A stretch of DNA of 33,869 nt from Patellaria atrata CBS 101060 (GCA_010093705.1 MU006100.1:248001-281869); one strand, 5' to 3'. Shown: positions 5,782 to 31,806, numbered from the stretch's first letter. The notes: generated by a model not told the origin, from the sequence alone. Program-made: numbers and translations.

Positions 5782-7112
5782 GTGAGGGTGGATAGTTTCT
5801 TTCGCTGTTGAGCAAATAATATAAGAAGCAGAAACCTTTTGTATCGTACACGAACTAGTTGAGAGGCTAATGTGGAGATGGGAATAAGGAGGTATACTCT
5901 GTCTTACGAGATCGATGAAAGGATGTAGAGGCCTTGATATGAAATAGCGGTGTAGGAAATAAGATAGTTTAGAAAGTTTGAATGATATCAAGTTATGTTA
6001 AACTAAGAATCAGTCGAAGCGTGGGGAGAGACAATCAGATTTATAGGCAAGACATGTCGTACTAAAACAACCTACCGTAGTAGCAATCATCCCATCATAG
6101 CATAACCTTATGGTCACCCGATTTCTAGCCAGTAAGATCATGATAAGATTTGCCATAAAGTCTCGACCATACTTCATGTCCATCGCAGAGAGGAGCCTCG
6201 GGTCTTGGAGAGGTACAAACTACGGACGATAGTATTGGAGCAAACAACAAGATACTGGGCAACAAACAAGATACAAGGAAAATCGACAAGATAATCATAG
6301 ATCAACGATTCGCAGCGATCAACAAACTTCAAGCAGATGGTTTAGATGCATCTTCAATTTACGGTACGTCCAGGCTCAAGAGACGGCTTCAAGCTCGACA
6401 CTGGTGCACCGGCTCACGGATAGTCCCATCCATAATTGTGCAGATACTATCGGCAAGAACATGATTTGCATCGGGATTACCGGTCGTAGGGAAGGACATC
6501 ACAGAAGGCCAGCCGTTCTCTGGAAGTTTGTTCTGTGGAAATCCTTCATGCATGCATATTGAGCTTTCTGGATGAAGCAGATCAGTTAACCTGTCAAGTA
6601 AGGAGTTCTTCAGTCCTGTCGAGAATGAAAAATTAAGAATAGACTAGAGCAAGAGCATAGATGCATACATGGTGGTAAAATTCTTGGGTGAAGAAGTTGT
6701 TCAAGGTGACTCTTAGGTTGAGGATTGAATAAATAAAATCGCGGTGTATGACTAAGCAATATTTTAGCGACCACCAGAAAGTCGAAATTCTTTACCATAA
6801 GAGCCCTTGTGTGTAATGAATTGCTGCCAACAAGCTCGACAGCTTTAAACCCAATAATCACTCCCACGTCTGTCTTCTACAACGAAACGAAATCACGTCC
6901 CAACAATAACCACATAACGCTCCTATTGATCCAACGTATCCGCATTCATTACCCTCATCCGATATCTAACGGCAACACCAATTCTTGCGTCACACGAGTC
7001 TATTTCCTCCTCTCAGGGATTAAGCTGTCAATCGTACCCACGCTTGTCACTACCTATCAACACGTCACATTTGCGCATCTTGTACATTTAGGATCATTCA
7101 TTCTACTTCGAT

Positions 7113-10100
7113 ATGGCCCCTTCGACCTTTGCTTCAGCTGCCGCAGGCAATAATTCAAATCCGTCGCGTGGAGACGGTGGCGTAGAATGGTGAGCTCACA
7201 CCCCCTCTTCTTGACCCCTTCGCGTTCCGGCCAAAACAAAGTTGTGCTCTCTTGATTTGGAGCGCAAATGAATCTACTACTCTTATCTTAAACCATCGAC
7301 GGGATGACATTCTCTACACCGGAGTTCAAACACCGCAACGCATTGACCTCTGCTTCGCTAGATCTCAGTTTCGCTAATGTAGAATTCAGGCCTCGACGCG
7401 CCAATGGCGCCACTCAAACCTTTCGACGACCTTCCGGTGCTCCAGGTCTTTCGAACACTTCACAACAGAGAGATAACACCGGAAATACACCCTCCAACAC
7501 CGGCCCTCTCTCCTCCGGAACCGGTGTATACGTTCCCCCTCACGTCAATGCACAGAGGAACGGGTCTATTGTAGACTCTAGATACTCCAAAGACCAACTA
7601 CTACAATGCTATCGTAGCCAGAAGGATACAGAACATCTCGATGATGGCTTGGCCAGCCTTTTCGTTGGCGGATGGGAACCTCACCTCACGAATGGCGCGT
7701 CTACTTCGTCTTGGGGAAGACGGGACGACCAGAACAAGGATACTCAAGCCGGTGCTGATGTCTGTTGGGAACGTGAAGGAAACGTTATTCCCCTGGGTCT
7801 CATGGAGCTTACTGAAGAAGAACGAGATGTGCGTGTTACTCATGCACTTGTAGTTTTGAACATGGTTGACTAAGTGCTATTATAGACCTTTTTATCCTCC
7901 GTTAACTCTCCTCTCAAACCACCTACGCAGAACCAAAATAAGGAGGGAACTGCCAAGGACGGTCTTTCAGTTCGTAAGTCTTCCATTTCGCAAGCACAAA
8001 CTCCTGGTACATTCGGATTGTCTTCTCCAACCTCCGCTCGCCCAACCGGGCGTCGACGCGATACGAGTGATGCTTTTCCATTCCCGTCTGTCGCGCAATC
8101 ACCCGGTAATCCCCGGTTTTCCCGCGATGAAGGTAGCGCAGCAACACCACCACCTGCTTTACTAAGACGCAGGACCGACTATAAGGACCCTAATGCTTCC
8201 GGTACTGATGAGCGCGATAAAGAGAAACCACGGGACACACCTGAGGCCACAAACCCTTTCGGTACCCTGAGGCGAAGTATAACCGGGCCTTTTAGTGCTG
8301 GGGTGAACCAACCTGCTTCTCCTTGGTCTTCCACGCCTCAAAGCGCAGGATTCTCCCCAATGGGTGCCTTTGGAAGCTTTGCGATAGCTCCCAGTACGGG
8401 TCAAGCGTCTACTCCCACGGAGAAGAAACTTGGCTTTGGAAGTCTAAGAGGTGAAAGTCGGTTCAAAGGTTTGATGAGTAAGGAAAGCTCCGAAGATATG
8501 TCTAGTAGAGGTCCCAGAGAGAAACATTCGCTCAGCAATCTAGGAAAAGTCCCGGAAACTGAAGGTGAGCGTCGTGTACCGTCTTGGATGGAGGCGCGCT
8601 TTAACAGGCCCACGAGCAACGACACGGACCCATTTCCGGATGAAGAGGGTCGTTCCGGAAGTGCTGCTCTCCTTAGAAACGATGATGGGCCTTCTCGAAC
8701 TCAAGGTCCAGGATTCGGAACTCCTAGCCGAAAGGAGTCTCGCGATGAAGGACTTGCAGCTTTTGGTATGACCCAGGAGAATACCGTGTTCAAGGATGTT
8801 TTTCATGGAAGGGATGATTACCAACATCAAACTCCACAACACCGGAGTGGAGCTGGAGGCCATGAGCCAATGAGCCCTACCGATACCAATCCCTATCAAA
8901 GCCCAGAACATGACAAGAATGACCACGAAGATCATGATGCCGAAAGTTCTGATATCCAGCACACACCTCTTCCTGGGCTCGGAGGCGGATTCATGGGTGA
9001 GTTAGGATCGCACCCTGGACAGGCACCCTTTGGTGGACTTGGTAACTTCGGGCGTGGACCTGCTCCGTACGAAATCGCTGCCAGTGATCGAAGTCAGACT
9101 TCAAGCGCCGGTCCTCCAAAGGCTTTCCTAGGTCTAACTGGCTTTGGAGGATTGCCTGGATTGGGTGGTCCTGCAGCTTGGCCTCCAGCTCAAGGAACTG
9201 TGGGCACTCCAGCTAGAGACAAGCAAAATTTTGGCGGCGCATTTGGAGAAGGTATCTTTAATTCAGGAACAGAAGTCCAGTCCCCTAGTCTTGCGGGACT
9301 AGGTGCCGGTGGGGGAATGTTTGGTGGAAGCATGAGCGGTAGCGGTACTCTCGGACGTACAAGTAGAATGGGGTCTCTGTTCCCGGCTGCCATGCAGGAA
9401 CAAATGCGATCGAATGAACAAGGAAGACAACACGCTGATGATGGTTCTGTTGAAGGAGGTGATCATCACCTTGGCTCTCTTGGGCGCAACACCTTCGGAA
9501 GTAATGCACCAGGATCGGGTGTTCCGGGGCGAGACACTGACAGTCCATTACGTGCTGGGCGGGGCATATTCGATGACATGCTTCCGACTCCGGGAGCTGG
9601 ACAACGAGGTATCCGAAACCTAGATACTGGTTTCGAAGAGCCTATTCCTGGACTCTTCGGTCACGGTCAAGGCCCTGGTTCAATTGGTAGCTCGGCTCCC
9701 GGTCAAGGTTCTCTCCTACCAAGGGGTAATCAAGCGCTCGCTCAATCGCAACCTCAACCTGCAAGTTCTGCATCTAATCAACCTCCCGCAGCTCAACAGC
9801 GCACCATGGTCATGCCAGATAGAATGCGTTGGATCTATAGAGACCCCCAGGGTCAGACTCAAGGGCCATGGTCAGGTTTGGAAATGCACGATTGGTACAA
9901 GGCTGGTTTCTTTTCGCCTGAGTTGCTTGTCAAGAAATACGAAGATCCAGAGTATGAGCCACTGGCACAACTCATTCGACGCATCGGCAATTCACGAGAG
10001 CCGTTTTTAGTGCCTCAGATAGGTATTCCTCATGGTCCACCTACTACTCAGGCTGGTAATGCCTGGGCAGGCGCAACTACGGCAGGATCTGCAGCCCAGC

Positions 10101-12270
10101 CTCCCTTTGCGAGTAGTTTTCCTAGTTTTGGTACAACCTTAACTGCAGAGCAACAAAATGCGCTTGAACGACGTAAACAGGAGGAACAGTATCTCATGGC
10201 CAGACAAAAAGAGCATCTCGCACAACAACAAGTTCTCGCTAAACAATTGCAGCTACAGGGCGGACATATCCACGGTCAACAACTACATCATCATTCCAGT
10301 GCCCATAGTCTACATAGTCAACCCAGTTTCGGCAGTATTACGTCTCCGGGAGGTTATCAACCATCGCCTTCGCAAGGTCCTATCTCTATGAACCAGCCCG
10401 TTCCTGGCTTCTTTGACAACTCCTTCCGACCTCAACCCGGAGCCCCTTTTGGTCCAATTGGTGGCGGTAACCTAGATCTACTCAGTCCTCTTAGAGAGGA
10501 AGAACTGTCAGGCATGATGGGTCAAATGAATCTTGGTCGTGGAGCTCCACCAACGTTTCCGGCACCTGGGGAGCTTTCAGGTCCTCAACAGCGTAATGAG
10601 CAATTTTCTCATGCTCAACAGGTCAATCAAATGCTGGGTGACCGTAACAGATTGCAACGTGAGCAAACCGAGCATGATGCCCTCCAACAGAACATTCAAA
10701 ATGAACAGCAGAGTGCACAGGCTTCTAGAGATCGTCTGCAGCAATTTCATGAATTGCGAACACAAATCGACGCCGAGTATTCCGAGCCATCCACCACTAG
10801 CCCTCCCGGTCAACGTATCGGTCCTCCGAGCCAACAGCTTCAATCTAGCAAGCAACAGGAGGCCCGTCAACAGCCAGCTGCGATCACTCAGATTACGGAA
10901 GTTACGTTTCAATCAGAAACTGCCACGCAACCCACGCAGGTCGAAGTTCTTTCCTTGACCGAGCAAGTCCAGAAAGCAACTGCAGCTAAACAAGCCCCCG
11001 CTCCTGCTTCACCATGGGGCAAAGTCGATACGACCATAGTACACCCTTTCCCTCCTCCTCAATCTCAATCCCCACTACCGGCTCCAGCTGCACAGAGGAA
11101 ACACAATGTCGCGGATACTTTGAATGCAGAGTCCAGGTCAAGATCTGAGACTCCGAATGCTGAAACTCCTGGACCTTCTATCGCACCATGGGCTAAAGAA
11201 CCTGTTGAAGCACCAAAAGGGCCTTCCCTCAAGGAGATTCAGGAAATGGAAGCTAGAAAGGCTGCTCAGCAAGAAGAGATTGCAGCTGCCGCTCGTCGCG
11301 CAGCGTTCGAGAAAGAGATGCTCGCACAAGCCGCTCAAGTTGCTCCAGCACCAGGTTTACCTTCAAGTGCCAATTGGGCCAGCGGTTCGTCTCCCGTGAC
11401 TGCCAGTGCTTCTACACCTTCGGCTTGGGCCAAACCTCTTGCAGGTAAAGCAGCTCAGACATCGGCATCTGCGAAGAAGACTTTACAGCAGATTCAGAAG
11501 GAGGAAGAGGCGCGTAAGCAGAAAGCTGCTGCTGCTGCTATCGCCGCCAACGCTGCTGGAGTCGCAACTCCAACCCTTGCTTCGGGTAAACGATATGCGG
11601 ATCTCGCAAGCAAAGCTTCTGGCTCTGCTGCTTCAACTAGCGGTGGTGCATGGACAACCGTCGGTGCCAGTGGAAAGGTCAAGACTCCCACCGTCGCAAT
11701 CCCAACCGGTCCTGCAACGAATCGTGCTGTTAGTGGTGGTGTCAGCCCAGCTGCAGCAGCTAAGGCGAGACCTACACCTGTAATCCGCAGCACTACCTAT
11801 GGCACCGCTCAGGTAAATGCGCAGGACGAATTTAAGAAGTGGGCTGCGGGTGAGCTTAAGCCGGATTTGAGCAAGGGGATAAATGGTAAGTCTACCTCTA
11901 ATCCTACCCTAATATATGAACTTTCATCGTCACATTGTCACTTCGCAAATGCTAATTTCCACGTCTAGTCGACGAATTTCTCTCCTCCCTGCTCATCCTT
12001 CCCCCCGAGGCTGACATCATCACCGAAGCCGTCCACTCCGTCTCCCAGACCATCGACAGCCGCCACTTCGCCGAAGAGTTCATCCGTCGTCGTAAGCTTG
12101 CCGATAAGGGCATCGTCGATACGAATGCATCGTCCAGTGGAGGGCAAAGCGCCGAGGGCAAAGGTGGTTGGAGCGAGGTTGCCAAGAAGAATCCACCGGC
12201 CGTCCAGAAGGAGGAGGTCGGGAGTAGTTTTAAGGTTGTCGCGGCGAAGAAACGGGGTGGAAAGAGGTAA
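7113..12270 (+). CDS. GYF-domain protein, GIGYF/Smy2/Syh1 family (~1605 aa). Exons 7113-7189, 7390-7828, 7886-11885, 11969-12270
   Basis: GYF domain WIYRDPQGQTQGPWSGLEMHDWYKAGFFSPELLVK. Smy2-type C-terminus (EFKKWA...VDEFLSSLLILP...IDSRHFAEEFIRRRK...WSEVAKK...FKVVAAKK). Three introns with GT/CTAA/YAG signals join the track ORFs in frame. Confidence 0.93.
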
Positions 12271-12533
12271 GTCTGTCGTGTATAGGATTAGTTGAAGCGG
12301 AAAGGGAATTGTGGGATGGGTTTGGAAAAGAAGTGGTATGATGTGACCCATGTTATGTGTTCGATGATAATTTCATTGATGAGCGAGTGCTTCAGACTGT
12401 ATGTCGGTATGGGTTTTATTATTCATGTAGCGTAGCGTAGCGTAGAGAAGTCCAGTACGGGTATATACCTTGTCCCCCCTCAAACTTCATAGAATTATTC
12501 CACCTCTTCTCCCACCAATACCCCTCCACATCC

Positions 12534-14610
12534 CTACTCCTCCACCGCCCTCTCCTTCCCCTTCCCCTTCCCCTTCCCCTTCCCAATCAACCCCTCCACA
12601 GCCCCAACAGTCCTCACGATCTCCGCCACCCCCAACCCGGCCATCTGCGCCACCTCCTCGTAAAAAAGCCGCGCCGGCCCCTCCAGCTCGTCCGAGGTGC
12701 GGTAGACGCGGTGGTTCTGCCCCGGTCGCAGTATTGAGCCTATAGTCGTAGTGTCGCCGGGTGTACCCGAGGGGATGGGGATGGGGATGGGCTTGACGAT
12801 CTCGAGGCCCCTCTGCACGGTCGCGAGACGGGCTACTTTGGGATGTTCCTCGCTCTCCCTGTCTTTCCCCCCTTCCCTGTCTTTGGCCCCTTCCCTGTCT
12901 TTCCGCCCTTCCCTGTCTTTGCCCCCTTCCCTGTCTTTGCCCCCTTCCCTACCCCCGCCACCGCCCCCGCCGTCCGCGCTGTGGGGGTTTGTAGGAGGAT
13001 CAACGGGAAACATTCCCCACAGCGCGGAGCGGAAATCGCTCTTCCGCTCCCGGGTCCCGAGGGCCTCGGTGCAGAATATCGAGGCGTAGAAGGACATGTA
13101 GGCGTCTAGTTCCTCGGGGGTTAGGGTCAGCACGTCATGTTCTGTGACTTCCATTGCTTGTTTAAAGGGGAGGACGGGGGTTGTTTCCGCGATTTGGGCT
13201 TCGTAGGTGGATTTTGCGGTGGCCCAGGTGGTCCAGTCGATTGACGCGGTGGAGGGGTGGGTGGGGGTTGTTGGGGTGCGGGTGGTGGTGGTGGTATTGG
13301 GAGGGAGGGGAAAGGGGAACAGGAGTCCAGTGGCGATGATCAGCAGGGAGAGGAGTTGGATATCAGGGTGCACGAGCAGCGCATGACCCCTCTTCGCCCT
13401 CGTTTTCGGCGTTGTCGGGTTCGGGTAACTGAAGGTGTAGCCTACACTTTCTGCTAGGGAGAGCACGAGGGGGTATACGTCTATGGGGAGAGCGAGGTCG
13501 ATCAGGTGGCGGAGGAAGAGTTGCGGATACGGCAGGGCGGGGAGAGTCATTTTATACGATTCCCGGTAGAATAGTACAATGGAGTGGATGGAGGCGTAGA
13601 GTCTTGTGGCGCGGAGAACAGAGGACGGCTCGAAGGATTCGATATAGTGGCTCGGAAGCCGCTTTTTCATCTCAGTGGGGAGGGTTCGGCCGGCGCGGTA
13701 GTAGAGGAGTTCGCCGTCTGTGACCCATTTGTAGAGGTCGCCGATGGTGATGGGGAGGTGGAGGAGGAGGGAGCTTAGGTATAGCAGAGCGAGCGTGTCG
13801 AGAAGGGGAGGGAGTGATTCGGGATTCCGGCCTGTGCGTGTACGAGGCGGTTTGGGTGTCTCGGTCTCGGGGTCGCTGGGACCTTCGGATTGGGAGCTGT
13901 ATAAAGGGGTTTGAGAGGCTGTGTCGTCGCCGGCTTCGAGGCGGGCGGAGAGGGGTTTGAGGCGGAGAGCCCAGAGGTCGCGTACGGTGATCTGGATGTC
14001 TGTTAGGGACTGATCTGTACTATACGAATTGTATAGATTGGGGGGGGGAGGGGGAGTGGGGGTGTTTGTATGGTACCTCGAATTCCTTGGGGAAGCGCTT
14101 CTTGTCCACAAGCCATCTAGTTTGCCGCCAGAGTATCAGCTGGTAGCACTGGAGATACAGTTCTAAGGCTGCTGGACCGGTGTATTCTGTATTTCAAAGT
14201 TAGCGATTGTATAGTCGTAGGCATGTACAGTATTTTCAATCCCACTCCGCCATACACACTAGACAGTCACTGATTCTCATGCTCTTTCTGTATTATTCTG
14301 TACAAAGGGTATTGACTTACGTTGCGCCACAGTCTCCCTTTTCACCCTCTCCTTCCTCGTCTTCTTCCCCTGCATACCGTACTGGTCTTCATCTTCCAGA
14401 GTTGCTAGTGTACCCTTGAGTCTATTAGCTCCGAGTTTTGAAAAGTTACTTAACGTTGCATAATTTTGCACCAAAGAGTATATGTTTAGTCCATACCTCT
14501 TGACGATGATCATTGTCACAATACGTATATCCATCATCGGCTGTATAGAATTTTTGTGAAGGACAATTTCCCCAGTCGCATCGTCGGCCAGTACGTCTAC
14601 GGTGCGACAT
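12534..14610 (-). CDS. RRN7: RNA polymerase I core factor subunit Rrn7 (TAF1B) (~591 aa). Exons 14610-14497, 14414-14321, 14186-14077, 13991-12534
   Basis: Reconstructed N-terminus MSHRRRTGRRCDWGNCPSQKFYTADDGYTYCDNDHRQE (C-x4-C-x14-C-x3-H zinc ribbon). It continues LYLQCYQLILWRQTRWLV....FP.EFEITVRDLWAL and DTLALLYLSSLLLHLPITIGDLYKWV, typical of Rrn7 cyclin-fold 1. The introns keep the frame. Confidence 0.9.
12555..12583. repeat. (TTCCCC)n hexamer microsatellite encoding (GK)n at the Rrn7 C-terminus
   Basis: About 5 tandem TTCCCC units, translating as GKGKGKGKGK. A (GGGGAT)3 repeat encoding IPIPIP lies at about 12771-12790. Confidence 0.9.
12856..12950. repeat. 18-bp coding minisatellite, ~5.3 copies (TCCCTGTCTTTNNNCCCT), encoding (REGGKD)n in Rrn7
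   Basis: Units are directly visible: tccctgtctttcccccct / tccctgtctttggcccct / tccctgtctttccgccct / tccctgtctttgccccct / tccctgtctttgccccct / tccct. Confidence 0.95.
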
Positions 14611-16303: not shown

Positions 16304-18442
16304 ATGTGGCTTGACAGATTCTCCCATCAGTCAACACCTTCAGGGACACCACCTCCCCAAGCCAGACCATATTCTCCTGCTCCGTCACGAAGACCATATC
16401 TCACTCCCGGGACTTTACCCGTTAGACCAGGTTTAAGTCCGAGATCCTCTTCTCTATCCCTCGTATCTGCCAACGTCTCCACAGCAAGTCTTCCCTCCAC
16501 GGTACGAATACCAAATGGATCAGGTTTGAGACAACAAATCGCTAGGACACCACCTAGTGGCATACAAGATCCATCAAAAGTGCTAGAAGATATATTCGGA
16601 AAGCCTCCGAGGAAGGGTTACCAGGATGACAGTAGTGACAAAAAGGTAGAGACGGAGAAGCCTTCAGAGCTAGTAGAGGATATCGACTTCGACGGGTTGA
16701 GCTTGGAAGCATTTGCGGAAAGGCAGGATACGCAATCTCGGGTAACGGCAATTGTACATAATTATAGCGCTCAATCAGTTGAAGAATGTATGTTTTATCC
16801 TGGATAGACCCCATCATGCCTTTGCTCATGCGTGTTATATAGTCGACAAGGAGAATGATAAATTCGAAGATCTTCATCGATCCATCCTAGCGTGTGATGA
16901 TGTCCTAAAATCCGTCGAGACATATTTGACCGGCTTCCAAGCAGACTTGGGCGCAGTGTCTGCTGAAATTGAAACACTCCAATCTCGATCAACTACTCTA
17001 AATACTAAGCTCGAAAACCGTAAGGTCGTTGAAAAGCTCCTTGGCCCAGCAGTTGAAGATATAACCATATCACCCGCAGTGGTTCAAAAGATTTCTGAAG
17101 GTCCGATCGATGCTGCATGGAATAAGGCCCTAGCAGAGTTAGAAAAGAGATCTAAAGCCATCGACGCACGTCTAAAAGAACCAAATGTCATCCAAGCTGT
17201 ACGAGACCTTAAGCCTCTATTAGACGATCTCACCAACAAGGTAAAATACCCCCCATATACTCCCCATACCAGACTAACCACCAAACCTAGGCCATCGAAC
17301 GCATCCGCGACTACCTCGTTGCTCAAATAAAGGCTCTCCGCTCCCCCAACATCAACGCCCAAATCCTTCAACAACAAAATTTCCTCGCCCACAAGGACCT
17401 CTCCGCCTTCCTCTCCCGTCACCACCCCCAACTCGCCGACGAAATCCGTCAAGCCTATATCAACACCATGCGCTGGTACTACCTGCACCACTTCACACGG
17501 TACCGGCAAGCACTCGAGAAGTTAAAGTTGTACCCGGTAGACGCACACTGGGTGCTTGCCGCAGACGAAAGCAGCGTAAAACAGCGCTCATCCGCCAAAA
17601 GCACAACAACAGGACCCTTCGACCCCTTTTCCCTCGGACGACGCATGGACATCCTCCGAAGCAACAAAAACTCCGCATTACCAAGCCACCTCGCCGAAGA
17701 CGACAAAAGCGCCCACTTCCTCGAAACGCCCTTCCACTCCTTCAACCTCGCGCTCCTCCACAACTGCACCTTCGAACACACCTTCCTCTCTACCTTCTTC
17801 AGCGGCACCCACGCCACCACCTCCCGCGCCTTCGACGTCATCTTCGCCCCGACCCTCTCCCTCGCCCACTCACTCACCAAAGCCCTCCTCGACTCCACGT
17901 ACGACGCGCTGGGCCTCCTCATCGCGGTGCGGCTGAACCAACGCGTCGCATTCGCCCTCCAGCGCGCCAAGATCCCCTGCTTAGACGGCTACGTAAACGG
18001 CACGGCGATGCTCCTCTGGCCTCGCTTCCAGCAAGTCATGTCCGCCCACACCGACTCCACTCGCAAGTTCACCGCAGCTCTATCCTCCAGACCGCCAGCC
18101 TCATCCCTGCTCTCGTCCTCGTCCTCCGCCGCCGCCGCCCAGTCCACGGCCCCGCACCCCCTGACTCAACGCTTCTCCAACTTCGCGCATGGCATCCTGG
18201 CCCTTTCCGCCGAAGCTGGCGATGAGGAACCCGTTGGCATGAGTCTTGATCGTCTGAGGACCGAGTTCGAGAACGCGCTGCTGAAATTGAGTAAAGGCAT
18301 CGCTGGGAAAAATAAGCCGGAAAGGTTTCTCGCGAATAATTATAGTCTCGTTGGGACGATTTTGGAGGGTGTGGAGGGGCCGCGGGCGGAGAGGATGAGG
18401 GCGCGGTTTCGGGAGCTGAGGGAGGGAGTCGAGGGCGGTTGA
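16304..18442 (+). CDS. VPS52: GARP complex subunit Vps52/Sac2 (~677 aa). Exons 16304-16787, 16843-17240, 17291-18442
   Basis: DLHRSILACDDVLKSVETYLTGFQADLGAVSAEIETLQSRSTTLNTKLENRK, AIERIRDYLVAQIKALRSPNINAQILQQ, AYINTMRWYY, YDALGLLIAVRLNQ, MLLWPRFQ, PHPLTQRF and FLANNY are Vps52 signature segments. Two frame-preserving introns. Confidence 0.96.
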
Positions 18443-18681
18443 AGGTGTGAGCGTACAGTTGCGGAACTGTGGGCCTTTTTTTTTTCTTTTGTTTTCGGGA
18501 GGCGTGATGTTGAGTTTGGCCGAGGAAAAAAAATAGTTATACTATAATCAATACAATCCCCCTCCCAGCCTTATACCCTCCTCATATACGTATCTGCATA
18601 TCATCTTTCCCTGTACTTCAAACCCCAAAACATTAACAGACAGCCCAATCTCCACCAAAAGCCAAAAAAAAAAATTAAAAA

Positions 18682-18844
18682 CAGTTTTCACGCTCTCCTA
18701 AGAGGGCGTGGTACATCTGCTGCCCCTGCTGGAGCCCGATGGGAGATAATGGGGGCAAGTTGCCCCCTCGGGGAGTCGACCCCCGGGGTTATCGATATTA
18801 CTTAGTGGCGCTACCACTAGGCCACTCCAGGGATTATGGAACTG
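18682..18844. ncRNA. Candidate structured non-coding RNA / tRNA-derived Pol III element (unidentified; strand unresolved)
   Basis: Seven nested helices within about 165 nt. The minus strand carries A-box TGGCCTAGTGG (18824-18814), a B-box-like GGGTCGACTCC (18782-18772) and T5/T11 runs (18681-18664). It matches no snRNA, rRNA or canonical tRNA I recognise. Confidence 0.6.
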
Positions 18845-19257
18845 GGTGCGAATTTGTTAGTTATAAAGTACTGGTGCTAGGTTAGGGTTTGAGAGGGGGG
18901 GGTCGCGTGATGGAGGTGAGGTATTTGGGGTTGTTTGTTTATATGCAGATAGGGGATTGTGGGGGTAGAGGGTACTGGGATTGTTTTTTTTATGGAGTTG
19001 TGAAGGAGGATTTTATATGGGGTAGTAGCTATGCAGTTGCTTGAGAGGTACTTTATTTATTAAATCTATAGTTGGATGTTTTATACTACACTAGCTGTCT
19101 AAGCCCACCGTGAAAAAGTCAACTTCGCTGACACGAGCGTCACCCTAATACATCACATAGACATCCCAAACGCCAATATACCGCCGATCCGTCACTATGA
19201 TAGCTCACACCCCGAACTCCTTCTTACAACGATAATATTACACCCAAACAACCCAAC

Positions 19258-22200
19258 TCACCCCCTCGAACTCCCCAAAATCTTCCCATACGCATCCTCC
19301 ACCTCTTTCGCAACTTCCAACAAACTCACAATAACAATCTGATGCGTGACATTCGGCAACCTATCCCTCTGTAGACCGATCCACTCCAGCGGCGGCGTGG
19401 CCTCACCCATATCCCTTAACTGCGGGGTTTCGATAACCGGGGGCTCGAGCGCCAGATACTCGTACTTCGACTGTGGCAGCTTAACCTCCGCCGTGATCTT
19501 GTTCTTTTCAAGGGATGGTTGTTTAGTCAAGTCTCCGCCGTCCTTGTCCTCGGAGGTGCGGATCTTGACTGCGGATTCGGGGAGAGGCTTTCCGAGACGG
19601 GATGCGAGGGTGTGGGAGTGCGTGCTCCACATTGAACGGATCGTGCTGATGCGGGAGTAGTTCCATCCGACGTCGACTTTGCCCTCGAAGGAGGACTTGA
19701 AGATGTAGTCGATGTGGTTGGTGTCGGGCGCTTGCCAGGTCTGCATTGATGCGATCACTTTCGGGACACGGAGGATAGTGCCGCCCTTTGCGGCTGCAGC
19801 GTTCAAGACGACGTCTTCAACTGTCACGTCACCGAGGGTCTTTGCGGTCTTAGGGTTAGAGATGGAAGCGAGGGCTATACTGAGTTGGCCGAGCGTGAGA
19901 CCGAGGCCGCTGTGAATCTTGTTCTCTTTTAATGCTACAGCAAACCGAGCTTGCGCATCAGATGCATCGAGTAGAAAGACTGCTTTGTCGAAGAAGCTAC
20001 CTGGGAAAATACCCACACGAAGAGATTTAAGAGTAACTACTACGTCTGATTGCAACGAGATTGGTGCTTTCATCTCATTGCTAGCTGGAGAAGGAGCGAT
20101 GATCTGTTGCGATCCCATCCTGGACGGCAAAATAGAAGACTTGCGTCGTAGATATTTCTCAATGTCACGTAGTGACTGGTCATAAGCCGCCTTATTCTCC
20201 TGCACCAGTCTTTCTAAGGCTTGTAGGAGGGCCAGTCCTTGCGAAGCACTTACTGCCGTGCAGAATACTGATACTCTTCCTCCGTCGAGAATAGCAACAA
20301 GCCTATCAGCAGACGTCGAGTCTTCCCTATGGACATTATACATAATAAACCCGAAGGATGTGACATCTGCAATTGCGAAAGCTTGGTAGTCAAACGCCAC
20401 CTTGACACGCAAGTGGTCAAATCCCGCTGAAGCTTGAATGAGAGGCGAGAATTGCTTTTGTTCGTTGTTCGATGGCCACTTGATCGATGTGCGGACTTTC
20501 ACTCCAGACAGGTTCACAAATCCACTCATCCTTCCAGCCGCGTCGATACCGATTTTCTCTACGCCGACACATAGATTGGACTCCCAATCCGAGCTCTTTC
20601 TAGATGAAGCCCACATATTTGTGATCGACCAAGAGGTCTTTCCAATCGCTTGGCCGAGGTCAACATCAACAACTAGATCTGAAATTGAAATAGTTGCGTT
20701 CCATCGGAAAGGAGTAGTTTGCGCAACTTGCTGATATCGTTGTACAAGATATTCTTGCGGCCCAGTGGTTGTTGCTGTGGTGGATTCTTTCGGTGATTGT
20801 CGAGCTTCCGGTGGAATCCAAATCTCTCTGAAGAGAAGAAAGTCCTGTAATTGTCTTGCATTTATTTGCGTACGTACGGGATTTATTCGCAGAATAGCTG
20901 AAACACCGCTCTTGCCGCTAAGATGTTTACTGTTCATCAAGGAAAGAATTATTGAATCAACGTCAAATGAAAATGTCGAGTCTCTCGAATAGACATGCTG
21001 TACAGATGCTTGGAGCTTGTCACAGGTAGCTGATACAGCGAAAAAGTGGCCTTGGTCGTCGGACCTCACGCTATTAGCGGTAATGTATACATCGTTAAAC
21101 TTCATGGTTGCAGCTACTCGGGCCATTGGTTGACAACTCAGACTGAACTCTTGTCTGCAGATTCGAACGCCAATGTTGAGTCTTGTCTTTCCAAGGATTG
21201 TGCTCGGATCTGCTGTGATTATACTATCCTCGTTCATCAAATTTTCTTGGACTCTTGGTTCCAGGAATTCCTTGGGTGAAATACTCTTCTCATCCTTGTT
21301 TTGAACGACTTGTTGGATGCTATTCGAGATATCCATGACCAGCGGAACGAACGTCGGATAGAGCGTATTGACCGATGGGTTGATCCTCAATTCAGCATTC
21401 AGAGTAGAATCCATATCTGTATCCTTATACTCCACCTTAAGCGCTACGCCGGGAGCACGTAACATAGTAGATGAATTTGACCCTTCGTTCACAAATTGTC
21501 CGTATCGACCAGATTGTGTTGTAAGCCCTTCTTTCAACCCTCTTGGTTTCATTCCACTACGTCCTGATCCTCGTTTACCATGTAAGTGAACAACTGCTCC
21601 TGCAAAATTTGCATCAATAAGCAGCGACCCCAATTTCTTCTTACCAAAGGGGTTACGTCTATCTGCACCGGTTGTAGTTGGTGTCTTTGTCCACGATGCA
21701 GTAACGGCCTGGACCTTGGTTGTCGACAAGCATATAGACTTGTATAAGATATTCGCGGGTACAACAAAACGGGACTCTAGTTGCAGATCGAGAGATTTTC
21801 CCCCTGCGTAGATGGCAAAGTTACGGTCTGCAGAAGAAGACCAATATACAACGTTGAAGATGACTTCGGGAAGCAGAGCGGAATTCATGGACCGTTGGCG
21901 TTTATCCTGAGATAATGGTACCATTTGGAGGCGTAAGTCTTCTATCTTCAGGCCTGCCGCATTTCCTCTTTTGCTAGAGAGGTCAATCTTCTTGAATGAC
22001 AATACTAAGTCTTCGACATCCATCCCGGATGAACCTGGGACAGAATTACCCACAATCCAACATATTTGTATCCCGGTCAGTTCTACTTGGAATGCTGATC
22101 TAAAAAGAGCACTAGATACGCTGCTATCGTCATCATTTACGCCGTCCTCCTTTGGAAGTAGAGATGTTTTCCGTTTGGGCGCCTGCAGTCTACGCAAATA

Positions 22201-25200
22201 TTTCTTCTCCCGCGATAGATCTAGATCCTTTAATTTGTCTTGGAGGTGATTCATTACATCCACAATGGTAGAAGCAGTATCGGCAAACAGATTAACCTCT
22301 AGACTGGAACTCTTGATCTGGTAATTTCGCCTAGAAGGCATCGAGTTATCATCCGGCGTGGTTCCCCGGAATGAGGCACCAAAGCGAACGTTACCACAGG
22401 GCTTAGAGCCATGACCATCTAGCAGATCAAGCTGAACACAGAGTTCTCGTAGATAAGCTTTGAACTGGGGATCCGGGAGTGCAGTCAATTCTTCGGATAC
22501 GTTGGTGATGCTAACGTGAACGCAATGAAGGGAAGCTGAAAGGTTGGCAGTGGATGAACCTTGCAGGCTTGTAGGAGCAGTCGCGATTATGCTTGTCCCT
22601 TCAAGAATGAACTGAACAGTATAAGTTGGTTGTGGTGATGATTCCCTCCGAGGGTGATGTCTACCAGGCAATGAAGACAAAATCTCTTGTGCATGTGATT
22701 TGAGTATCATTCCATCTTCTTTCATTGCCTCGAGGGTATTTGCAATTTCTGGTCGATTAAATGCAGTCAACAATCCATGGATCGCAGAAGCTTCGAATAC
22801 CACCCTTCGCATCGTGGTTACCGTCTTTATGTCTAGCGAACCATCCACCAATTTCACTAACTGAAGCTGTCCATTGACTGGAGGTATTTCCCAAGAAGAT
22901 ATGTTCCCAGACTTCTGGAAAGTCTTTCCAAGTATCTGATGATTTTGACGACCGAGATCATAATCTAGTTTCAATGAGAAATCACAATCTAGGGCAGGTC
23001 GCGCGGATATCCGTCCGATTCCACCGCTAATTGAGTACTTCAAGGACTGAAAGAGCGGAATATCTATGCGATATGATTCCATAAGTAGAGCTACAGTTAT
23101 ATTAGGCATTCCTCCTTTTGTTTCTTTTGTAGATCCCTCTGGAGCGCAATCATGAGCAGCTGTAGGACTCCCCAATCTACTTGCAATATATGTGAGTTCA
23201 TCGTTAACCACTCGGTCCACAACTTCGATTAATGCCGGTAATTCATCTTCGAACTTCATAGCGATTTCCTTGCTAGCACCTGCAATTTTCAGGTCGACCG
23301 GTTTGGTGCTATGGTTTCCGTGCTTCTCATGGGATATGAATAGATTGGGGGCAACCCACAATGCAGAATAGACACGGCGTGCCCGGGAACTGAAATCTGT
23401 TGAAGCAGCATCGGCATGTAACAGAGCGCTGATAGAGAGACTTTCAGGTGCTGTTGCTCCTAATGCTCCAACAACAGATAATTTCAATCCCTGACTCTTC
23501 CAGGCGCATTTAAGATTTATAGTGTCAAGTGTTATATTACCCGAATCGGTAGTAACAACAAACTGGACGTTATGTGCTTCCCTTGTGTCCAGTTCTTCAT
23601 GAATTCGATTTACGCTATGTTCGACGTCCTCTTTTGAAGTTAATCCCTGAGCCTGGAACAACTTGATAAGATCTTCTATAAGCTGGGCAATCTCCCAATT
23701 CAGATGAAGGAGTATGGAGCCTATATGGACTTGAACTGTGGTTGATTTTATTTGTACACCACTTTCAAGAAGCATTAATCCTAAAGGCGATGGCGGAGGG
23801 ACTGAGGCAAAATGGACAACTAGCGTTCTGAGGCGAATCTCACTTTGATTTGGACCTGGATCGACCAGTAAACCGATTGAGGATGACCGTACTTCTATTG
23901 TCCAAGACGTTGGATTCTTTGTATGAAGAGGTTCAACGCCAAAACCAGCTATCGAGCCAAATAATGTTCGCATCGCAAAGCTGTTTTTTACGTGTGAAAG
24001 ATCCCACGCGCGCCAGCTGTCCCAACTTTCAATGATCTGGGTCTCTCCATCTGGTGGACAGCAGGTAAATCTGTCAGCACAAGCGTCCCTTAGTTCTTGC
24101 TTGTCTTCGTCGGAGAGGCATTGGTAAATATAGCGGAATCGAGCAATGATTTTCCAGGAATCATGATTCCGCAGATGGTCTTTACTTGCTCGTAAAGCAT
24201 AGGACGCGCGTGTTAAGAATACCGGATCAGGAACATCTGCGCCAGACATGGTGAGTCGATATGCAAGATATTGCATGCGTCGTCGGTGCTCTCGGAGTAC
24301 GGATACAATTCTGGTCTCAAATTCACCGGCTAAGAGCGTTGTTCGATGTATCAACGGAGCTAAATATTCGATTCTTGTACTGGTTGTAGCAACTTCAAAA
24401 TCTTTGAAGGAAAGCTTTAACAATCCGGCATCTGCGGAAACAAGCCAGCATAGTACATCCACTATGTCCAGACGGACTAAACACTCTGGATTCCCCACCT
24501 TGTCTGCCTTCCCTTGAACAATTGCATGAAAAGCTCCTAGAGTAGCATGCAGTGTAGTCGTGTCACGCCAATCTGCGCCCTGCGGAGGTGTCTTGGATCG
24601 GAGGGCGACCCTAAGTCGTTTAATGATAAAATCGTATTGATCTTGTTCCATCCGTCCTCTAGATTCCTCCAAGTTTGACTGAAATGAATTTAGGAAACGG
24701 ATGCTAGCATGCGGTATTCGCAAGTTAAGTTCAACGAATTTTCCTTTTCCGGACTTAACCTTCCGAAGACCTAGAATTTCAGATATAACCCCAATTTGAA
24801 AGGAGTCCAACAGTGCCTCTGGGTCTTTGGCTTCTAGTGAATCTAAGAGATTTGCCACTGTAAAGACTGCTTCGGGCTTGCACAAAATCTGAATACCCGG
24901 TTCTACACTTACAATAAACGTTGTGTGAACTAGATGCTCATCAAAGGATTTGCTAGATACATCGTTGAAGTGGGGAGTAGAGTCATCGGAATGATGAGAT
25001 CGGGTAGAATTATCAGGCAGAGGAGGGACCTCTGCCATGTCAGGCTCCACGTTGTTCAGTGTAAAGTACGGAGTATTAAGACAACTAGAGAAAGCCATCG
25101 TTGAATGGGGTGCACGAAGGCCTCCGGGTTCCTTTGCTTGGGAAAGTCTGTCCTGCTCACTCCTTTGCACACTCATCCTCGATTCTCGACTTTGAGATCT

Positions 25201-28200
25201 AGTATTACCGAAATCGTTCTTTGGTGGCTGATCTAAGCTACTAGGTCTTGATAGTGAATGTGTGTTAGACGGAATAGTTCCATCAAGGTAACCTGTTGTT
25301 ATTGTAGTAATTGAATGCCTAATACTTCCAGTTTCACCACCAGCATGAACAGGTTCAGGAACCATAGGAAAAGGCATTGCTGGGATTTCAATCTCAGTGC
25401 GAGCTGTTGATCGCGAGTATGATTTGCTATTAGCGTCAACTGATAGGAAGAACGGTGTTCGATGTGTCCGCTCATCATGCTCTAGTACGTGATTTTGTTG
25501 CTTTCGCCTTTCTTCGCTGAAGTCATACTTTCTTTTTAGCATGTTCAGGCGTATAGCCGTGGAGAAATACGCATACGTCTCCACAACATGACGTGGTCCG
25601 CCTTGTAGTCGATGTCTTGACGCTAACTTTGCATCCACACAGCCTACATTTATTTGAGGGATAAGAACCTGGAGACGTTGGGAGAAAGTACTGCCAGCCA
25701 TATCATTGAACTCGACATTGATAGGCTCGGTCCTCACGAGTAATGCCTCGTCTCCAAGTAGAAGGGCCACATTCATAGGAGCTGCCTGTAGACGTAGAAA
25801 CGTAATGTCGTGGATAACTGCAGCCTTTACGATATCAAGTCCGTTTTCGTCATCGTCTAAGGTAAATACAAAGGCACGAATGCCTGCACCTAGGTTCTCA
25901 AGGAACTCAGTAGTAAGTTCCCCAGATATTTCGCCCACGTCAAAGTCCCAATTGCAGACGTATGTAGGCTCAGTTGGAGGTAATCCAAAAAGTCGATGGC
26001 CAAATATGTGAACGGACTGGAGGAAGAGTTGCGTCTCACCGGAGCTTTCAACCGGCGTCTCTGTGCTTGTGCAATATTTTCCAAGCGAAGCATGTAGTGG
26101 GCTGAAGTCAACCATAAGATCCATATAATAGTTAGTGAACCGTAAATCTGCTGAAGCAAATGCCGCATCTAACCTCACATGGTCATCGCTTGTGTATAGG
26201 TTTGAAGGCAAGAGGACACTTGCATTATCAACACTGACGCAGAGGATAACATCAAGATCATTAGACCTTTTAGAAGACTTTTCTAACTTGTCTTGAGTTT
26301 CCTGATAGTCACCTTGCTCTCGTAACCATTGAAACTCCTCCAAAGTTTTGAAATGCATGTCGTCTCCAAAATAATTTTCTCTCATCTTCATAAATTGCTC
26401 GATTAGAAACCCGAACAAGGTGAGACGTACGTTTGTTCCATGTATGTTAAGATTTAAAACGTCAGTAAAAGATGGAGAAGTCTCTGTGAAATAGCTGTGG
26501 CTCCCAGTTAGTTTCAATGAATCGAGATCGGCGACATTATTTGCTTTTATAAAGGTGTGAATCGTGTTACGGGGTGGCGTTGAAAGATCTAGTCCGAACT
26601 TATAACCCTTGACATCAAACGTTATCTCGTTCTGCAGAGGCCTGAACTGATCGAGAGGAATGGTTAGGTCCGCCTCGAGCTCTTCGCCATACATAATGAG
26701 AAAGTTATTGTCATCTATGTCCGACGGGTCGTTGACTATGTTCAATCCGTTCGTATTCAAATACATTCGGAAATCATCGAACTTGACATTCAGCAAATAT
26801 TTGAACGGAGTAAAAGTGAAGTAATCTGTAGGAGGTCCTGCACCCCAGTCCGAGATTAAATCCGTCAGTAGGAATAAGTGATCACGAAGGATAAATAGAT
26901 GGAGTCCATTAGATAGGATATTGAATTTCCATGTCCGCAGTTGATTCCACCCAAGAGGAAGTGGCAGATCACAGTCAAGTGACAAGCGACCTGCTCGCCA
27001 TAACAGTCCGTGATTCACACTAGACGATATTTCGGTCCCTGGAACATCAACATCTAACTTATTATGATAGCCATCTTTTGCAGCGACCATATCCATTCTG
27101 TAATTCACTGTTGTATCTGAGGCTATCTTGATATCTAACCAAGCAAATGGTCGGACATTAGGCCCGGGTAGACCTGCATCACGCTTCTTGAATCGGATTG
27201 ACTTTATGCGAGCCTTAGCGTGCGGCTTGGCCTTGTCTCCAGATTTCCCTCCGTCAGGACTATCACCGGTGAACGCCCCTGCTTTTCCTTTGAAACGCCA
27301 GTCCTTTGAAGGTTCCCGCACGGGGATACGAAGAATTGTTTCTTCTTCGATGCTAAGAAACATTCTGAACACTGAAAGGACTCGGGTGTCTCCACTGTGT
27401 AGAAGTTCAGCGGGAATTACATCAGTATAAGATCCAGGGAAGAAGAAGTTTTGGAAGTTCACACGGTGTCTGTCCGCCCAAGGTCCATAAGTAATAGTGC
27501 CGCCATGAATATGGAGATCGAGTCCATAGTCAGGTGGAGTTGTACCATTGATATCGGTATTATCTAAAGGTAGCCTAGATTGATCAAGGTCGTGGGGAAC
27601 AAAACCAGGTATATCCCAATAGAAGGTCATGCTTAGGCGCGGACAATCAGCTATAGTTGACGAATTTGCGTACTCTATGCCGCTCCATTCGTCGTGTTCG
27701 TTATGCTGAGTATCATCAAGATATCGTGTTAAGCCCTTCCATCGTTCCTCTCCAGGAATGGGTGGTGGGATAAGACTTGGTCCTTTACCAGATGTATTTT
27801 TGGTTGCTATAGAGTCAAATGACCGACGAAAAAGGGGTGACAAATTCTGTAAGGCAAGCAACATTCTGTGAGATTTGTGTGGTTTCGATGATTCTTCAGT
27901 AACATCTGGAGGAATATCGCTATTCACCTCTTTTTTGAGATTAGCTGCAGTTGCTAGTTGAAGGCCCTTAAAATCGGGATTCGGACGCATTTGGATAACT
28001 GGATGCGTAAAGTCAAAGCGGAATATCTGTTTATAGATATCAAGGGGTCCAGATTCACCGGCGTCGAACTCGCCCCAAGCGCTATCGAATTTCGCTGTGA
28101 TTATAGCTTTCGTATTTTCATTGCCTACAACTATTGCGCCTTTATTGCAATGGATGTGGATGGGAAAGAGACCTAAGATAGCAGGTATCTCAGGTTTGAG

Positions 28201-29052
28201 ATCCGAATTGAGAGCTGCTGCTCCAATTGCTCCATCAGCACCATAGGTTGTCTCGGTAGCGCGCTCTACGGGCTTGATATGAGTTGATTCAGGTGAAATA
28301 TGACCGTGGGCGGAACCTTGACTTTTCTGTCCCTCCGAATTACTATGTTGCGCCTGGGTATTTGGAGATGTCTCCTTCCGCTTCTTTGCTTTTGCGATAT
28401 TTTCAATAATGGAGTCATATATCGGACTCCGATTATAGAGAAATACCTCAACACCTGATGCCTTGATAGATATTCGGCATGGTAAATCTGGTAATGACTC
28501 TTTTCCCCCTCTTTCCTCTTTTCCTAGGCTGCGGCTCCTACTGCGCATTTCGCTATGGCTTGGTGAAGCTAGGTTGCATAGGCTCTCCTTTCTTGATGTT
28601 GTCCCGTTAGAACAGAATTCTGGTTTTTTAACCTTTCTAAGCCAGTATCTCCATGTTATGTAGCCTCCATGTACTAGTATCGTCTGGTTTTGCCCATGGT
28701 AACGTATGTCCCTGAAAAAAACTCTCCCAGCGAGGAGTGATATTTGCAAACTCTGTATATCCACATAGACACGATATTGATGCCAAGTGTAGGCCCTAAT
28801 TGCGTACGACAGAACGGTTGCGAATAGTCGATTGAAGTAGTAGAGGAAGAAGATTGTCCTATATAACCAGTAAGTATTAACAGTTTGCTAGGGAAGGGAA
28901 GTGAGCCTTACAATATGCCACAGACTAGCAGCTCAACTAAGTAAACCCTAAGGCATATTGTTAACAGTGTTCAATCTCTATTAGATAGTGGCATACCAAT
29001 TGAAGGACCCGTCGCCCCTCAAGGGCTCCGCAGTTAGACCTCCGGACGACAT
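19258..29052 (-). CDS. CSF1: Csf1, bridge-like lipid transfer protein (BLTP1/Tweek/KIAA1109 family), ~3230 aa. Exons 29052-28997, 28947-28912, 28858-19258
   Basis: A 3168-aa ORF plus two short 5' exons gives MSSGGLTAEPLRGDGSFNWVYLVELLVCGILTIFFLYYFNRLFATVLSYAIRAYTW (N-terminal TM anchor) then SLQISLLAGRVFF. YGPWADRHR, YFGDDMHFKTLEE and the C-terminal PQLRDMGEATPPLEWIGL..DRLP..TH are Csf1/BLTP1 hallmarks. Confidence 0.96.
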
Positions 29053-29492: not shown

Positions 29493-31806
29493 ATGTTGAA
29501 AACCAGGGATATACTCACGTTGGATGAAGGGACTGGGGCAAGATTTGCGAACATAATAACTACGTTGGCTGGAGTGTCAGCTCTCTCTGCAACGCTACTT
29601 ACATTTGTGTATGGATATCAAGATATCACTTTACGGACTGAGGCTAACGTCTAATCTCTTCCCATAGTTCAGTATGGCTTCAATCGTAAGTTTATTTACC
29701 ATATAGACCTGTACAGGTACTCATAGTAGTTAGGAAAAATTACCGGAAACCACTATTGCAGAGATATGTGGTACGGATATTACTCATGTACGTCTCCACT
29801 AATGCGAATCCATATGTTTTATTCTGATAATAGAAGGGTGCCTATATATTCTGCAGCATCTTGGGCAAGTCTTACATCACAAAATGTTGCATTCTGGGTA
29901 GATCCTTTTCGAGACGTATATGAGGTGAGCAATAGCTATTGTAGAGATCTCGCGCAAAAATTGATCAGATATAAAAGGCATTCACAATCTATACATTCTT
30001 CCAACTCCTGATAAACTTCATCGGGGGAGAACGTCAACTAATCGTTCTTATGCATGGCCGTCCGCCAGTCTCACACCTATATCCGCTCAATTACATACTA
30101 CCAAAAGTCGACATATCCGATCCCCATACATTTCTAGCCATAAAGCGCGGAATCTTACAGTATACTTGGATTAAACCAATTTTGTCAATTGCAACAATTA
30201 TATTGAAAGCAACAGGAACCTATCAAGAAGGTGATCTTTCTGTCGATTCTGGTTATCTGTGGAATGGCATTATCTACAATCTCAGCATTACAGTCAGTCT
30301 ATACGCTCTTGCTATGTTCTGGGTCTGTATGTCACAAGATTTGAAACCATTTCGACCTATGCCAAAGTTCCTTTGTATCAAAGGGATTATCTTTGCTTCA
30401 TATTGGCAGGGGTTCTTCCTGTCAATCCTCGTTTGGCTAGGCGCCATACCATCCGATACCCCTGGATACACGGCCGACACTCTTGCAGCTTCAATTCAAG
30501 ATGCACTGATTTGTTTTGAGATGCCTATTTTTGCAATCACTCATTGGTACGCATTTTCTTGGCATGATTACGCCGACGTTACTATCTCTGCAGCACGAAT
30601 GCCGGTCAAATTCGCACTTCGGGATGCTTTTGGCCCAAGAGACCTCATAGAGGATGCAAAGGACACATTCAGCGGAGAACATTATGAGTACAGAGCATTC
30701 GATGCTGATGACAATGTTCTTGCGCATGAAGAATCGTCGTCACGTGTTGCAAGGATGATGGAAGGTATGAGGTACGAAAGAGGTGGGAAAGGAAAGTACT
30801 GGATTCCGAAACCTGGGAATGATAGCGCAAGATCACCCCTTCTCGCCAAGGTTTCTGGCGGAAGGGCTCGAACTATGAGTCCTGCCGGGGGGATGCGTTC
30901 CGAAGACAGGAGGAATAAGTACGGTACGACAGGTGATATTGAGGAGACTACGCTTGACCCTGAAGAAGAGAAGCTGTACGACAATGCGAGAGCGTTAGAG
31001 TTCGGTGATTGGAATGTAAGTGAGTTTGAATCATGAATTGGATCTTATTGCTAAGAATGGATAAGTATCCGGTTATCACAGCACATACAGCTACTCGAGA
31101 GCATTATACACATGCTGATCCGAACATTGTTACTGCATCAACTAATCGACATCTCTTACAACCTACAAAACGTAATAGAGAACGACGTCAAAGCAGGATC
31201 AAGGAGATCCAACAATCTGCAGATAAAGGAAAGCATCGCAGCAATTCCAGTAATGGGGAGAGCTCCCGATCGAAATCAGTGTCTCGTCGTCCTGTCTTAG
31301 GAAGTCTTCTAAGGCATGAATCTTCATCTTCTGAATCGGCTAAATCCGATAATAGTCAACTAGTCGATCTTGTTGTGGAGGATCATGAGGCTGAAGAGGT
31401 CGAGAGAGTCCGAGCAAGAAAAGAAGGAGGGCCTGGTTGGAATGAGGTGGAGACAAAACACTTCATGTAAGCATCCTCAGCATGGATAGAAGAGATGAGC
31501 TGACTTGAATTTAGTCATACGTTTCCGGAAGATGATCAAGCGGAAGATGTGCGGGAAGGTTTTGATCCTGACAAACCTGAACCTTCCAGCAAAGATAAGC
31601 ACAATCTTGATGCACCTTTTGCTGTAGGGAATGATGAAGATGGGGTTACTCCAGATAAGTCTGATGACGAGACACATTGGGAGCGCCGCGATTATGACGG
31701 AAAGGACGGGGAGAATGGGAATACAGAACGCAGCCCTCAATACGGCAGCTTTCACGAAGAACGGAACGCGTGGGGCGCTCGGGATGATGAAGCCAGGGGG
31801 TCATGA
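29493..31806 (+). CDS. HFL1: TMEM184/organic solute transporter Ost-alpha family membrane protein, Hfl1-like (~668 aa). Exons 29493-29608, 29668-29685, 29734-29787, 29837-29924, 29978-31015, 31066-31466, 31515-31806
   Basis: Spliced product contains KNYRKPLLQRYVVRILLMVPIY, RDVYEAFTIYTFFQLLINFIGGER, KRGILQY, PKFLCIKGIIFASYWQG and IQDALICFEM...HWYAF, all Solute_trans_a family motifs. Six introns keep the frame. The HFL1 symbol is inferred from the long cytosolic tail with LY..A....FGDWNYPV. Confidence 0.93.

Follow-up and report, generated by a model that had tools for sequence, protein, structure and literature searches.

Results

The window, by which we mean the whole 33.9-kb stretch of DNA that was analyzed, is fungal and carries VPS52 and CSF1 as convergent genes, with a spacer of ~815 bp between their stop codons. 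Pfam domains were found on both genes: Vps52_CC (E 7.9e-28) and Vps52_C (E 3.6e-60) lie in plus-strand frames ending at 18442, and Csf1_N (E 1.8e-133) and Csf1_C (E 2.8e-105) lie in a 3,168-codon minus-strand frame (28764..19258), which bears out the original prediction in its placement of a structured element between the two convergent genes. This element, ~165 nt in length, is separated from the stop codon of VPS52 by 240 nt and from that of CSF1 by 415 nt. The protein-atlas cluster nearest to the Vps52 C-terminus is mostly from Ascomycota, and the window genes carry introns. The remaining genes (2786-14135 and 29975-33868) are of ordinary housekeeping types and include, by their Pfam domains, a RING-finger protein gene (3278-4396, plus strand), a gene of 1,360 codons for a GYF-domain protein (7886-11965, plus strand), a gene for an Rrn7/TAF1B-like Pol I factor (12537-14135, minus strand) and a gene for an Ostalpha-type transporter (29975-31033, plus strand); several further ORFs in the window, of 150-290 codons, had no Pfam match.

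The spacer itself is of uneven composition. AT-rich stretches that read like fungal poly(A) signals follow the VPS52 stop codon at 18526-18556 on the plus strand and the CSF1 stop codon at 19051-19064 on the minus strand (TTTAATAAATAAAG), and if these stretches are used, the VPS52 and CSF1 mRNAs would both terminate short of the element. The flanks of the element (18550-18680 and 18850-19000) are of low complexity and strongly strand-skewed, with C and A prevailing on the plus strand before the element (GC skew ~-0.7) and G and T prevailing beyond it (~+0.8), and the 3' flank of each gene is C/A-rich on its own sense strand. Inside the element the skew is near zero, and the GC content amounts to 0.60-0.62 over 18700-18849 as compared to 0.37-0.49 in the flanks, in line with the earlier description of a GC-rich island in a low-complexity spacer.

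Upon rebuilding the fold from the helix coordinates, we obtained the eight properly nested helices that had originally been described, with 45 Watson-Crick pairs, 6 G-U pairs and no non-canonical pair on the plus strand. The terminal helix P1 (18682-88/18838-44) encloses a hairpin (18689-97/18702-10) and the helix P2 (18729-34/18825-30), and within P2 lie CCC-GAT-GGG (18735-43), the helix P4 (18745-50/18788-93) with the GGGGGC hairpin (18751-67) and the TCGGGG/CCCCGG hairpin (18768-86), and a last hairpin (18801-08/18814-21) that we refer to as D-like for reasons given below. The region 18729..18830 may form a four-way-junction core, which the pair probabilities favor on the plus strand and disfavor on the minus strand; here P2 (CTGGAG/CTCCAG) surrounds CCC-NNN-GGG, the D-like hairpin, and P4 together with the two hairpins that it closes. 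On the plus strand, the eight-helix structure has a predicted energy of -65.2 kcal/mol as compared to -67.1 kcal/mol for the minimum free energy (MFE) fold, while on the minus strand it reaches -53.7 kcal/mol, or -60.9 kcal/mol when enforced, as compared to an MFE of -66.3 kcal/mol, that is, 5-12 kcal/mol above it. The pair probabilities vary between helices: they are 0.31 on the plus and 0.01 on the minus strand for P2, 0.52 and 0.28 for P4, 0.71 and 1.00 for the GGGGGC hairpin, and 0.98 and 0.83 for the hairpin at 18689..18710. On the minus strand, P1 is present in the MFE fold with five Watson-Crick pairs and a mean pair probability of 0.64, and the hairpin around 18769..18785, T-like as described below, has a pair probability of 0.75. 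From this modeling, we place trust in the individual hairpins and in P1 on the minus strand, and we treat the four-way junction as tentative.

Compared to shuffled sequences, the element folds better than chance on both strands, to a modest extent (z of about -1.8 to -3.2). On the plus strand we obtained z -1.78, a level of folding that 10 of 200 shuffles matched, and on the minus strand z -3.20, with 1 of 200 equally good, while five alternative pairs of boundaries gave z between -1.8 and -2.7 over both strands. Relative to shuffles, the fold of the minus strand is hence at least as good as that of the plus strand. In sliding windows of 167 nt (n = 23, 18177-19443), z values of -1.95 or lower on either strand were found only where the window overlapped the element, with a z of -4.01 on the plus strand for 18627-18793. 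The predicted structure is thus real and local, with a modest excess of folding over chance, and the modeled fold energies and z-scores leave the two strands unseparated; thermodynamics by itself is no proof of a functional RNA and does not tell its strand.

No known RNA family accounts for the element, in line with the original prediction. At gathering score, none of the 4227 families of Rfam 15 matched anywhere in the window. At E<=10, six matches arose over 651 nt and three over 116 nt, all of them far under the gathering scores and at chance level. The only one from the tRNA clan aligned the model of mascRNA/menRNA, a vertebrate family of tRNA-like 3'-end elements, with its T-arm and acceptor to 18809-18762 on the minus strand (14.2 bits, where the gathering score is 42.5; E 1.3-7.4), and a Y_RNA match (13.9 bits, E 8.3) fell at 18498-18585, outside the element. 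Within the reach of the Rfam models, the U snRNAs, SRP RNA, RNase P/MRP RNA, 5S rRNA, riboswitches, small ribozymes, and Y and vault RNAs are therefore discounted. By reading the sequence we found neither C/D nor ACA boxes as expected for the two classes of snoRNA; the U run is too long for the Sm site of an snRNA; and long terminal inverted repeats or target duplications of a MITE are absent from the element. A C/D or H/ACA snoRNA, an Sm-site snRNA and a MITE were set aside on these grounds.

A tRNA gene was likewise not detected: ARAGORN at default settings found none in the whole window. At thresholds of 70-80% it returned a weak "tRNA-Ala" (anticodon AGC) at 18842-18761 on the minus strand, in another register, in which the hairpin with the A box described below becomes the anticodon arm and GUUCCAU pairs with AGGGGGC as the acceptor stem. 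This call is probably noise, since equally weak ones arose on the plus strand. Between the D-like and T-like arms the element has no anticodon arm of 5 bp and 7 nt, and no acceptor stem adjoins the T arm; the T arm is present (18785-18769), and the complement of the acceptor-like CUGGAG lies 34 nt beyond it, behind two extra hairpins. Like tDNA relics of the ZOD1/iYGR033C type, the element thus retains A and B boxes but not the fold of a tRNA.

A sequence of 10 nt near the element (18880-18889) reads GGTTAGGGTT on the plus and AACCCTAACC on the minus strand, which corresponds to 1.67 telomere-type repeats, 36 nt upstream of the Pol III start predicted below; we estimate that ~0.4 such sequences would be expected in a window of this size by chance. 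Telomerase RNA was considered on account of this sequence and rejected, as the telomerase RNAs of filamentous ascomycetes exceed 1.5 kb and the ~815-bp spacer is too short to hold one.

We found the minus strand of the element to carry the signals of a tRNA-type Pol III promoter. Both strands of the window were scanned for pairs of an A box and a B box set 25-70 nt apart, with at most 2+2 mismatches counted against the consensus forms TRGCNNAGTGG for the A box and GGTTCGANNCC for the B box. Ten pairs were obtained, nine of which had 2+2 mismatches, whereas the tenth, on the minus strand at 18824/18782, had 0+1. After dinucleotide shuffling of the window, a pair with a perfect A box and at most one mismatch in the B box occurred in 0 of 200 shuffles, and a pair with at most one mismatch in each box in 11 of 200. 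The A box, TGGCCTAGTGG (18814..18824, minus strand), has no mismatch to the consensus and is unique in the window; the B box, GGGTCGACTCC (18772..18782, minus strand), has a single mismatch (T54 to G). Between 18600 and 18900, the scan returned no A/B pair on the plus strand. The gap between the two boxes is 31 nt (42 nt from start to start), at the lower end of the 31-93 nt reported for yeast tRNA genes (PMC5356446).

Both boxes reside within hairpins that resemble the arms of a tRNA. The A box is part of a D-arm-like hairpin (18801..18821, minus strand) with a D-loop-like AGUGGUA that includes GG, and the B box lies inside a T-arm-like hairpin (18769..18785, minus strand) with a 5-bp stem CGGGG/CCCCG and a 7-nt loop GUCGACU, onto which the mascRNA model had aligned its T-arm. 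The placement of the boxes within D-arm-like and T-arm-like hairpins therefore suggests a descent from a tRNA gene. Three more hairpins follow on the minus strand, among them GGGGGC-AACUU-GCCCCC (18751..18767) and a 3' hairpin (18689..18710) with a stem of nine positions, a UUAG loop and one internal C.A (G-U on the plus strand).

The presumed ends of this RNA coincide with its terminal helix. In yeast, +8 of the tRNA is where the A box begins, and Pol III initiates 10-12 nt ahead of the mature 5' end (PMC5356446). By this rule, the start is predicted at the C-A-G of 18842-18844 on the minus strand, 18-20 nt upstream of the A box, and it falls on the first bases of the 5' strand of P1, CAGUU (18840..18844). 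The 3' strand of P1, AACUG (18682..18686), is followed directly by a candidate Pol III terminator (18664..18681, minus strand), which consists of T5 (18681-18677), AA, and T11 (18674-18664). The first T5 downstream of the B box is the one at 18681, and no T4 occurs within the predicted transcript (18843 to 18682). By our own arithmetic, the chance that the 5 nt at the predicted start would complement the 5 nt before the first T5 is ~0.01, and this coincidence is independent of the A/B statistics. The terminator by itself is weak evidence because A and T runs are frequent in the spacer. On the plus strand, the next run of at least five T lies ~130 nt past the element. Upstream of the predicted start, an AT-rich stretch contains a TATA-like TTTATAA (18861..18867, minus strand), a candidate site for TFIIIB/TBP, at about -24 to -18. 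As TATA-like sites are usually found at about -30, this one is closer to the start than expected, which counts against a Pol III gene.

We then looked for relatives and copies. A pattern that combines the D-loop with the B box proved to be rare: 596 Gb of prokaryote genomes contained 6 exact matches, and none of these six loci was alike. A metagenome scan with the same pattern gave 17 loci, none of which resembled the element beyond the words of the pattern, either by eye or by blastn (best match 14 nt, E 0.13). Two of them, L011 and L013, look like tRNA or tRNA-like genes with a T loop that, as in the element, starts with G instead of T; they are otherwise unrelated. A protein-database search with a 68-aa reading across the element in one plus-strand frame produced no candidate, and the exact hairpin strings had no match in the full text of the literature. 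Within the 33.9-kb window, blastn found no second copy, and no flanking direct repeats that could represent a target-site duplication were seen. Among sequencing runs, the locus was found only in two runs on one sample, both of them DNA and not RNA. Their contigs of 13.8 and 17.7 kb pass through the element unbroken; they are identical to the window and probably its source.

Discussion

We suggest that the minus strand of the element carries an independent gene for a small RNA, transcribed from an internal, tRNA-type (type 2) Pol III promoter into an RNA of ~165 nt that is derived from a tRNA without being one, and we assign this explanation a probability of roughly 0.6. TFIIIC would bind the A box (18824-18814) and the B box (18782-18772) and would set TFIIIB on the upstream AT-rich, TATA-like stretch, upon which Pol III would initiate near 18843 and terminate in the T5/T11 run (18681-18664). 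The product is predicted to measure ~163-167 nt, with its ends paired as CAGUU/AACUG and with a 3' oligo-U tail of the kind that is bound by La. Its location would not be unusual, as Pol III genes are common between the AT-rich ends of convergent genes. Overall, this is a well-formed prediction from the sequence: the motifs with their spacing and their scarcity among shuffles, the hairpins and the lack of a known family are observed, and transcription, the RNA ends, La binding and any function are inferred. Besides the position of the TATA-like stretch, the modeled folds also speak against it, since the nested architecture lies well above the MFE on the minus strand, where P2 is nearly absent, and since the fold z-scores are modest.

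The original prediction had assigned the structure to the plus strand, as an independent ncRNA or an element of the VPS52 3'-UTR, on the grounds that the wobbles are all G-U when read on the plus strand and would be C.A mismatches on the minus strand. This observation is correct for all six wobbles: four of them are G-U pairs at helix ends, and the two internal ones are G-U only on the plus strand, which is a point against a minus-strand Pol III gene. The argument is partly a selection effect, because a reader of the plus strand extends helix ends with pairs that are valid on that strand only. In a constrained fold of the minus strand, two extra end positions, innermost in the hairpins at 18801-21 and 18768-86, pair on that strand only, and the unbiased tally of about 6 to 2 for the plus strand is not decisive. 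The energy model, which disfavors the central junction on the minus strand, weighs more heavily against a minus-strand gene than this tally does. A plus-strand RNA would further be consistent with the full nested structure lying within 2 kcal/mol of the plus-strand MFE, with the strong folding of 18627-18793 and with the proximity to the VPS52 stop codon. However, the minus strand bears a perfect A box and a near-perfect B box, ordered and spaced as in a tRNA, which would then be a coincidence that none of the 200 shuffles reproduced, and the same strand also carries the TATA-like stretch and the T5 and T11 runs that abut P1, whereas the plus strand offers neither an A/B pair nor a nearby T run. 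The z-score of the element as a whole is only modest on the plus strand, and the poly(A)-signal-like sequence that may serve VPS52 lies upstream of the element. The earlier strand call is probably wrong, and a plus-strand RNA of either kind now seems quite improbable to us; what stands of the proposed structured fungal RNA is that the element is unannotated, locally structured and without an Rfam match, and what lacks support is its strand and the 3'-UTR assignment.

Three other explanations were considered. The element could be the relic of an old tRNA gene, comparable to ZOD1 and iYGR033C of yeast, whose A and B boxes may still bind TFIIIC and Pol III as a boundary or roadblock, with an RNA that would be scarce and functionless. 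The D- and T-like hairpins and the tRNA-like spacing of the boxes, in a sequence that fails every tRNA test, fit such a relic, as do the modest z-scores. Precedents come from yeast, where ZOD1 is described as an ancient, weakly transcribed tRNA-Ile gene and iYGR033C as a tDNA-Arg relic (PMC5356446), where weaker assembly of the Pol III complex lets the mRNA of a convergent neighbor, PCL5, extend by ~400 bp, and where B-box mutations in ZOD1 alter the transcripts of RPM2 (PMC4228148). A relic nevertheless leaves unexplained the three extra hairpins, the lack of any T4 over 165 nt, and the terminal helix by which the terminator is linked to the predicted start, and the island of structure extends over all of these 165 nt, beyond the tRNA-like part; we consider a relic unlikely, while granting it an appreciable share of the probability. 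A mobile element such as a tRNA-derived SINE, present as a copy or in part, would also combine a tRNA-like head carrying A and B boxes with a body unrelated to tRNA, yet the window holds one copy only, flanked by no repeat of the target-site-duplication kind, and the 3' end of the sense strand consists of T runs instead of an A-rich or simple-repeat tail. The unbroken passage of the two long contigs argues, weakly, against many identical copies, and we regard a mobile element as the least probable of all the explanations considered. Chance could produce a functionless GC-rich run of short palindromes on either strand, given that a z of about -2 is reached by 1-5% of shuffles. This would require the A box, the B box, their spacing, the terminator and the terminal helix to arise jointly, in addition to a sharp island of GC content and skew and an island of local structure, and it strikes us as very improbable.

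A minus-strand Pol III gene of this kind would have several counterparts, none of which it matches fully. Yeast RNA170 is ~170 nt long, and its name suggests a size similar to that of the element. As in the element, A and B boxes without a working tRNA are found at RNA170, a Pol III RNA of unknown function, and at ZOD1 and iYGR033C, all of them single-copy loci of Saccharomyces cerevisiae (PMC5356446, PMC4228148). The element differs from these loci, to which we liken it by description and not by sequence, in that it resides in another ascomycete, among intron-bearing genes, and in that a terminal helix ties its predicted start to its terminator. In RPR1 and SNR52, the A and B boxes occupy a 5' part ahead of a 3' part unrelated to tRNA (PMC5356446), and the element shares this layout. 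Its 3' part, in contrast, has no conserved regions of RNase P, no C/D boxes as read from the sequence, and no Rfam match, and its 5' end pairs with its 3' end, such that the mature RNA probably includes the "leader".

In animals, vault and Y RNAs are small transcripts of Pol III with ends that pair into a stem followed by a 3' U tail, and vault genes have internal A and B boxes; the predicted transcript resembles them in its paired ends and its 3' U tail. The bacterial YrlA RNAs join a terminal stem to a tRNA mimic built of D and T arms (PMC4201824, bioRxiv 10.1101/312249). Unlike the Y_RNA, YrlA and Vault families, the element has no match at gathering score and no helix that we recognized as Ro60-binding, and among the window ORFs scanned with Pfam we found no Ro60/TROVE or major vault protein domain. 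Neurospora milR-4 and the tRNA-miRNA units of murine gammaherpesvirus 68 are likewise Pol III transcripts with a tRNA or tRNA-like 5' part, hairpins and a T run, and in Neurospora Pol III makes further small-RNA precursors, one of them linked to a tRNA (PMC3547838). Compared to these units, the downstream stems of the element, with 3-9 pairs, are too short for Dicer-type precursors, and it contains no true tRNA for RNase Z.

As to what a minus-strand Pol III gene would do here, we tentatively propose a small and stable RNA of the RNP type that contains a tRNA-mimic module, an assignment that we hold at less than even odds. A more doubtful alternative is a weakly transcribed locus, where the bound Pol III/TFIIIC complex itself would act as a roadblock between VPS52 and CSF1; such a role at the level of the DNA is plausible by analogy to the effects on neighboring transcripts in yeast, given that the element lies exactly between two convergent 3' ends. 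It is conceivable, at a small probability, that the gene belongs to an undescribed family of Pol III small RNAs of filamentous ascomycetes, in which a U-tailed terminal stem would be combined with a tRNA-mimic module whose D- and T-like loops could kiss, and which would correspond, in fungi, to the Y, YrlA or vault RNAs, acting as the scaffold of an RNP or decoying enzymes that bind tRNA. We know of no Y-, YrlA- or vault-like RNAs in fungi, and word searches of the literature found neither a Pol III RNA of such kind described in filamentous fungi nor a Y RNA or Ro60 in fungi.

Hairpin-rich elements fold on both strands, and the coding strand is therefore better inferred from promoter and terminator signals than from counting G-U pairs on one of the strands. 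To our knowledge, the Pol III transcriptome of fungi outside budding yeast is largely limited to tRNAs, 5S rRNA, U6, SRP RNA and RNase P RNA. If the minus-strand Pol III gene is real, a single-copy, tRNA-derived Pol III RNA of ~165 nt with an architecture of its own would extend this set by a new RNA family. It could represent a tRNA gene caught in its evolution toward a different RNA, and it may illustrate the way in which convergent genes are kept apart by a Pol III complex.
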